IMG/VR virus record: IMGVR_UViG_2711768069_000002
DNA length: 6,030 bases
Strand: one strand, 5' to 3'
From: a virus
Taxonomy: Duplodnaviria; Heunggongvirae; Uroviricota; Caudoviricetes
Positions within the stretch are counted from its first letter, which is position 1, and each line of letters begins with the position of its first letter. The notes under the pieces were generated by a model. That model was not told where the DNA came from. It was given only the letters and a program-made list of their open reading frames with translations, and made no database searches. Shown one piece after another: positions 1-122 of this stretch. Both the position numbers and the translations under genes were made by a program.

Positions 1-122
1 CTCGACTACGTGGCTGAAAAGCCAGATCACCCAACCACATAAGCTGTGGGATGCAATGCCGAAGCAACCGTCTCAGGAGGAGCTTCGAGATTGCATCGCC
101 AAAGTTTATTCGGGAGGAATCT

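Follow-up and report, generated by a model that had tools for sequence, protein, structure and literature searches.

The window, that is, the whole stretch of caudoviral DNA of 6,030 nt that was analysed, begins inside the spacer of a putative nut site and carries a short hairpin, the leader and gene of an N protein and, further downstream, gam, bet and exo (Table 1). Nucleotides 1–330, comprising nutL, the leader and most of N, are of the VT2-Sakai type, and from 330 onwards the sequence is of the 933W type; given this junction, and since none of 5426 complete E. coli genomes has at least 80% of the whole window in one place, the window is a mosaic. The boxA and pL lie outside it and were read in near-identical relatives. 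Window 1–330 shows 97.6–98.5% identity to VT2-Sakai, Nil2, Stx2 II, 1717, YYZ-2008, 2851 and others, and sequence of this type is present in 767 of the 5426 complete E. coli genomes (about 14%); over all these relatives the identity ranges from 97.6% to 99.4%. Positions in VT2-Sakai (L003) are converted into window positions by subtracting 3500.

Table 1. Predicted features of the window and, for the parts read in a relative, of VT2-Sakai (L003).
Feature	Position	Strand	Remarks
pL (VT2-Sakai)	L003 3405-3433		TTGACC-17-TACTAT
Transcript start (VT2-Sakai)	from L003 3440		ATCAGCAGGACGCTGG; placed by homology to P22
boxA (VT2-Sakai)	L003 3480-3492		GCTCTTTAAACAA, near-consensus
Spacer hairpin (VT2-Sakai)	L003 3494-3506		GTCGA-ctc-TCGAC
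Linker (VT2-Sakai)	L003 3507-3510		TACG
boxB hairpin (VT2-Sakai)	L003 3511-3524		TGGCT-GAAA-AGCCA
nutL spacer hairpin, 3' arm TCGAC	2..6	+	5' arm GTCGA, boxA and pL just upstream of the window
Linker CUACG, spacer hairpin to boxB	6..10	+	in nutL and nutR of Sakai-type phages, 75/02, MG40 and 933W/H-19B
nutL boxB (predicted)	11..24	+	stem 11-15/20-24, GNRA tetraloop GAAA 16-19, closing pair U15-A20
Structured N leader	35..108	+	hairpin CCACA-taagc-TGTGG (35-49) or long imperfect stem (39-108)
N gene, 90 aa	123..395	+	Pfam PF25694 N_peptide, E 1.6e-31; protein predicted to bind boxB
N residues 1-30			MSRKTEFKGTAASRRRARRANLQSQESISS
N arginine-rich motif (ARM) GTAASRRRARRANLQSQ	encoded 147-197; residues 9-25	+	ARM class co-occurs with the tetraloop
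Unknown ORF	454-924	+	
Terminator-like site	1029..1056	+	GCCCTC-cagtgt-GAGGGC and T run; consensus scan; candidate N antitermination target
Further terminator-like sites	1067-1086, 3292-3314, 3887-3905	+	consensus matches only
gam	1467-1763	+	
bet	1769-2539	+	
exo	2551-3231	+	

At positions 11–24 the window reads tggctgaaaagcca (as RNA, 5'-UACGUGGCUGAAAAGCCAGA-3'), which gives UGGCU-GAAA-AGCCA, a perfect 5-bp stem under a GAAA loop. The earlier note's description of such a hairpin holds both for the letters and for the predicted fold, in which the isolated hairpin has −7.1 kcal/mol, a value equalled by 0 of 200 shuffles; its estimate of about 100 nt to N is close to the actual gap of 98 nt between the hairpin end and the N start at 123 on the N-coding strand. 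The three marks of a boxB, namely a short stem-loop, a GNRA-type loop and a U-A closing pair, are all found in UGGCU-GAAA-AGCCA, and the latter two, the GNRA fold and the closing U-A pair, are requirements of lambda N. An ARM protein, the product of N, is encoded downstream. An Rfam scan of the pL-nutL-N region returned no family, the best E-values of 2.8 and 3.7 corresponding to chance. By chance, a 6-kb window should contain 0.57 hairpins with a 5-bp stem and a GNRA tetraloop over its two strands, and the + strand of the 122-nt leader 0.004. Since the sequence letters alone are unremarkable at 0.57 per 6 kb, the identification had to rest on context; the hairpin is set apart from chance by where it lies, by its conservation and by stem covariation. 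A second 5-bp GAAA hairpin, GACAT-GAAA-ATGTC, lies in the interior of exo (2704–2717), has no nut context and fits the chance expectation.

Near-identical relatives have pL about 70 nt before the hairpin, which is thus placed in the early transcript in sense orientation. The earlier note had expected any boxA at or beyond the window edge and had proposed a look upstream; this recovered pL and a CGCTCTTTAACAA-like boxA, GCTCTTTAAACAA, the latter in VT2-Sakai, LC487996, the prophage of E. coli strain H19 and the viral contigs sharing the leader. LC487996 and the H19 prophage have the layout of VT2-Sakai, with acac as the spacer loop in H19. The boxA therefore exists where it was sought, but it is separated from the hairpin by 18 nt and not by 10–15 nt, a limit that was too strict because the gap contains a spacer hairpin of the kind found in H-19B nutR. 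This small hairpin between boxA and boxB, as in H-19B/933W, is formed by GTCGA/TCGAC and has covarying versions elsewhere; among the viral contigs listed, the variants are GGAC/GTCC, GTCGA/TCGAC, GGTGA/TCACC, GATTCA/TGAATC, GGCC/GGCC and GAAGAT/ATCTTC. The linker CUACG was fixed in the collection scans described below, and its conservation is that seen in the phages named in Table 1. In the source genome, the 150 bases upstream of the window are predicted to contain GCTCTTTAAACAACGTCGA and pL.

The identification of the site is already known, as N/nut antitermination is textbook material and the VT2-Sakai GenBank record (AP000422) labels L003 3479–3519 (window about −20 to 19) as 'putative N-utilization leftward'. 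VT2-Sakai is 97.6% identical over window 1–330, with an identical hairpin, leader and N, but its annotation runs from boxA to mid-loop, leaves boxB unnamed and is marked as putative, and past 330 the window is 933W-like instead. Both annotations in this record, 'leftward' (L003 3479–3519) and 'rightward' (835–874), end in the middle of the boxB loop.

A second boxB with the same loop was found downstream of cro, in divergent orientation. In the nutR of Sakai-type phages, between cro and cII, the sequence is CGCTCTTTGTAACAA-c-GGACattcGTCC-tacg-TCGCT-GAAA-AGCGA; compared with nutL, as the earlier note had suggested doing, the GAAA loop and CUACG are equal, and stem pair 2 has changed from G:C to C:G, a compensatory exchange. 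The same TCGCT-GAAA-AGCGA is the nutR boxB of VT2-Sakai, Nil2, the strain H19 prophage, MG40 and 75/02. In the Stx phage 75/02, with an N that is 83% identical, nutL has TGGCT-GCAA-AGCCA, whose loop is still GNRA, and in Salmonella phage MG40, with an N of 39% identity, it has CGGCT-GAAA-AGCCG. No other hairpin upstream of N was found to be common to nutL and nutR, so that the better boxB upstream of N which would have spoken against the earlier note did not emerge. The hairpin CCACA-taagc-TGTGG at 35–49 was considered as a boxB and rejected, being part of the N leader and having no nutR counterpart.

The nutR copy also links the window to a site that has been studied experimentally. It has been reported that H-19B nutR consists of boxA CACCGCTATTTTCAC, spacer CACAATGGACATTCGTCCTACG and boxB TACGTCGCTGACAAAGCGAGTCCC (oligo table of Muteeb et al. 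2012, PMC3526286), that it contains two hairpins (PMC3526286), and that in stalled elongation complexes H-19B N with NusA/NusG leaves the spacer and boxB protected from RNase H and boxA unprotected (PMC3526286). Read-through of terminators downstream of nutR by H-19B N has been shown in vitro and in vivo. The exact H-19B nutR sequence was found in 933W, and VT2-Sakai nutR shares with it the spacer GGACattcGTCC, CUACG, the stem TCGCT/AGCGA and gtccc after the stem; the loop is the sole difference, with GAAA in VT2-Sakai and GACAA in H-19B/933W. The window hairpin is, judged by sequence and position, the nutL partner of VT2-Sakai nutR and the homologue of the N-protected boxB of H-19B nutR.

Further evidence comes from a scan of viral contigs with the pattern CTACGNNGCTGNAAAGC, in which the two outer stem pairs and a single loop base are unconstrained and which matched at least 120 loci; CUACG and three inner stem pairs were fixed, and only two pairs were therefore free to covary. 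Both free pairs are complementary in 106 of the 157 matches listed, against a chance expectation of 1 in 16, where contig counts are not equivalent to independent evolutionary events. With a spacer hairpin directly next to TACG, a condition that makes no use of boxB, 101 of 104 copies are fully paired, compared with 4 of 53 without that context, again among the matches listed. In 36 distinct sequences, pair 1 is UA in 27, CG in 4 and AU in 3, pair 2 is GC in 15, CG in 13 and AU in 6, and 98.3% of cells are paired; the observed covariation score was reached by 0 of 500 shuffles. A compensating stem is thus combined with a conserved loop, which in the fully paired copies listed is GAAA or GCAA, with one exception (GTAA, without nut context), and never GGAA. 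Where two copies occur at one locus, they are divergent in 37 of 37 cases and 1.15–3.45 kb apart among the matches listed, an arrangement that nutL and nutR on either side of an immunity region should show. In the contigs listed, nutL-type copies are followed 66–171 nt downstream by an N ORF with the ARM RRR[AE][RH]RA.[LV]Q, and nutR-type copies are not.

These results bear on two other explanations of the hairpin. It could be a chance structure without function, as the expectation of 0.57 per 6 kb and the similar hairpin in exo would allow, but in hundreds of genomes it follows boxA and the spacer hairpin at the same place and in the same sense, nutR has a matching copy, compensatory changes have occurred in two stem pairs and every two-copy locus listed is divergent; the covariation and the paired arrangement already refute chance, which is left with a vanishingly small probability. 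Alternatively, the site could act as DNA, for instance as an extra operator bound by a dimeric protein, since the two stem arms form a perfect inverted repeat and a DNA palindrome would likewise survive covariation that keeps the arms complementary. However, the stem letters are free (TGGCT, TCGCT, CGGCT, AGGCT and TAGCT all occur), whereas the asymmetric centre GNAA is kept and always lies in the sense of the pL/pR transcript, and for these reasons an RNA element is favoured over a DNA operator. In addition, the operators annotated in the VT2-Sakai record lie around pL, further upstream than the hairpin, and in elongation complexes it is the RNA of the H-19B counterpart that is protected; a DNA palindrome is accordingly considered highly improbable.

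An RNA hairpin might have another main task, such as control of N translation, RNase processing or pausing, and the sequence just downstream gives this some substance. The N leader (25–122) is strongly structured, with an MFE of −46.9 kcal/mol and a z of −4.2, and its structure stops short of the ribosome-binding site GGGAGG. The layout recurs in other N leaders, where CCAAAG-N-CTTTGG directly follows boxB, a long stem encloses an insert that varies, and CCAAAGTT precedes the ribosome-binding site. As in the lambda N leader, the structure may serve RNA processing or the control of translation. At nutR, by contrast, the same hairpin occurs with neither an N gene nor such a leader, so the leader is context and not a component of boxB; moreover, RNase III would need a longer stem, and the hairpin is not followed by a run of T. 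Another main task is thus very unlikely; the hairpin could in addition help to autoregulate N at nutL, which would be compatible with its being boxB. In the MFE fold of the 5' leader, boxA pairs with the 3' half of boxB and replaces the boxB hairpin: boxA (GGCUCUUU) is complementary to the boxB loop and 3' arm (AAAGCC; L003 3479–3524, window −21 to 24), and a similar pairing is also possible at nutR. This alternative pairing was rejected, being no better than in shuffles (z −1.2), with no covariation between boxA and the boxB stem.

The hairpin at 11–24 is very probably the boxB of the nutL of a VT2-Sakai-type lambdoid prophage. This interpretation, put forward in the earlier note, is supported by the upstream anatomy, the nutR copy, the covariation and the homology with H-19B. 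Transcription from pL would begin about 70 nt upstream of the hairpin and yield RNA with boxA, the short spacer hairpin, CUACG and boxB in that order; the arginine-rich N-terminus of N (about residues 9–25) is predicted to bind the loop, in its GNRA fold, and the 5' strand of the stem, after which NusA would join, probably together with NusG and with NusB/NusE on boxA, and the complex would stay tethered to RNA polymerase. The modified polymerase would then pass the terminators of the early left operon and allow gam, bet, exo and the other genes behind N to be expressed, and nutR after cro would play the same role. For the N/boxB pair of the window, the binding, the use of Nus factors and the antitermination may be inferred from these sequence relationships. 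As the window begins inside the nutL of a Shiga-toxin-type lambdoid prophage, the early expression of N, gam, bet, exo and others would depend on N, in keeping with ordinary phage biology.

The sole unusual feature of this boxB is its four-base loop, as textbook examples have five bases. The earlier note called the loop GNRA-like; it is indeed GNRA, but a true four-base loop rather than the five-base GNRA-like loop of lambda and P22. A lambda-type pentaloop, in which one of five bases is extruded from the GNRA fold, is not present, and all nutL and nutR copies of the tetraloop class among the matches listed have four loop bases. In the comparator sites whose sequences were examined (lambda, P22 and H-19B/933W), the boxB loops have five.

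For comparison with these sites, the window site consists of the spacer hairpin, CUACG and TGGCT-GAAA-AGCCA, and its N has the ARM RRRARRANLQSQ. Lambda nutL, CGCTCTTAAAAATTAA-GCCCT-GAAGA-AGGGC, with the ARM RRRERRAEKQAQW, is similar in its 5-bp stem, U-A closing pair and G...A loop in a GNRA fold, and the ARM cores RRRERRAEKQAQ of lambda and RRRARRANLQSQ of the window resemble each other; unlike the window site, lambda extrudes one of its five loop bases and has a linear 8-nt spacer and another N C-terminal module, and its Trp18 position is Glu in the window N. It is said that Legault et al. (1998) found N peptide binding to be retained by a GAAA tetraloop form of lambda boxB. P22 nutL (gene 24 protein), GCTCTTTAACTTCGATGAT-GCGCT-GACAA-AGCGC, has a homologous pL transcript start, ATCAGCAGGACGCTGG, followed by boxA GCTCTTTAAC, and the C-terminus of its N is of the YAAGHRKSKQITAR type, as in the window N, but it differs in its pentaloop, its 11-nt spacer without a hairpin and its ARM, RRHERRRKLAIER.

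H-19B/933W and the window site have in common boxA, the spacer hairpin, CUACG, the 5-bp stem and the U-A closing pair, although boxA is unrecognisable in 933W nutL, and their N proteins share the C-terminal CLPNVAIYAAGYRKSKQLTAR. The 933W/H-19B nutL has a spacer hairpin, CUACG and GCGCT-GACAA-AGCGC, with TCGCT/AGCGA as the nutR stem. The H-19B/933W and window types differ in the ARM, RRRERLKAKAL versus RRRARRANLQ in the window, and in the loop, GACAA with five bases versus GAAA or GCAA with four. The window site can thus be described as having an H-19B layout, a four-base loop and an ARM nearest to that of lambda. According to Neely and Friedman (2000), H-19B N reportedly requires NusA but not NusB or S10, boxA being dispensable, and the spacer hairpin is said to act as a 'reducer' that joins its flanks. 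In 933W nutL (L005 3951–4017), GGTGAATATACAAC stands in the place of boxA, in contrast to the near-consensus boxA of Sakai-type nutL (L003 3480–3492); Salmonella tetraloop nutL sites, for instance that of MG40, are also without boxA.

A second contig scan was carried out for the pentaloop version, and every hairpin after CUACG was then classified; the counts are again of contigs and not of independent events, among the matches listed. The two-copy loci listed have four-base loops in both copies in 38 cases and five-base loops in both in 21, with no mixed locus among the 59. Similarly, in the 72 cases listed, the tetraloop goes with an RRA-type ARM in 46 and with one other ARM, the pentaloop goes with an RLK-type ARM in 25, and there is no crossover. 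The tetraloop class covers N proteins of 90 aa and of 120 aa, with roughly a dozen different ARM sequences. GAAA and GCAA are found with the same ARM, even within one phage, so the second loop base does not discriminate, as the GNRA fold predicts. The tetraloop class is defined here by GAAA or GCAA, no extruded base and a lambda-like ARM without tryptophan, and the pentaloop class by GACAA or GGCAA. The window site has neither the GACAA pentaloop nor the RRRERLKAKAL-type ARM of H-19B, and because the classes are unmixed in the 72 cases and 59 loci listed, it would represent a sister specificity class and not H-19B specificity.

It can be proposed, tentatively and with the balance of probability somewhat against it, that one nut scaffold carries two natural specificity classes, a GNRA tetraloop with an RRRxRRAxLQ ARM and a pentaloop with an RRRxRLK ARM. 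On this view, the compatibility of N and phage would be decided by an ARM swap combined with the gain or loss of one loop base, and an extruded loop base would be unnecessary for efficient N/NusA antitermination. A common N type with a genuine GNRA tetraloop could serve as a natural test of the roles of loop size and ARM in N specificity, and tetraloop sites could show whether assembly of the N–NusA complex needs the extruded base. In the searchable literature, no description of the tetraloop class, its ARM link or the VT2-Sakai nut sites was found; the ε34 genome paper guessed 'a novel BoxB specificity' for ε34 N from its N-terminal sequence, and the correspondence between loop length and ARM may be under-described. 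In Salmonella phage SPN9CC (L013), which has a 933W-like ARM, the boxB candidates have unusual closing pairs; they are GCTCC-GTCAA-CGAGC for nutL (C opposite C) and TCGCT-GACAA-GGCGA for nutR (U opposite G), in the L013 regions of about 4877–4895 and 2195–2208.

With regard to the N gene itself, a sequence search of the PDB gave zero matches, the solved N peptides being too short and too divergent. Another frame of the window at 365–445 encodes PEIQTTDGEVTCVGRQKMKLGSKPLI, ending at a stop, which overlaps the last N codons, continues past the N stop (393–395) and resembles the lambda N C-terminus, GITCSGRQKIKGKSIPLI. Such a lambda-like tail occurs in about half of the related N genes, is absent after others with the same N end and is interrupted by stops in some. 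A frameshift extension of N by this lambda/phi21-like peptide was considered and rejected, the tail being missing after many identical N genes and containing stops in some; given this patchy presence and these internal stops, the tail looks like a recombination-junction fossil, left by recombination between N genes with different C-terminal modules. A search for N with one genome per species gave only four loci, two in distant Pantoea and two in a metagenome-assembled genome (MAG) labelled Segatella copri. The two Pantoea N genes are without an obvious matching boxB. The two contigs of the Segatella copri-labelled MAG (L006 and L007) carry E. coli-type N, nutL and nutR with 96–98% protein identity, and this occurrence is most likely a binning contaminant.
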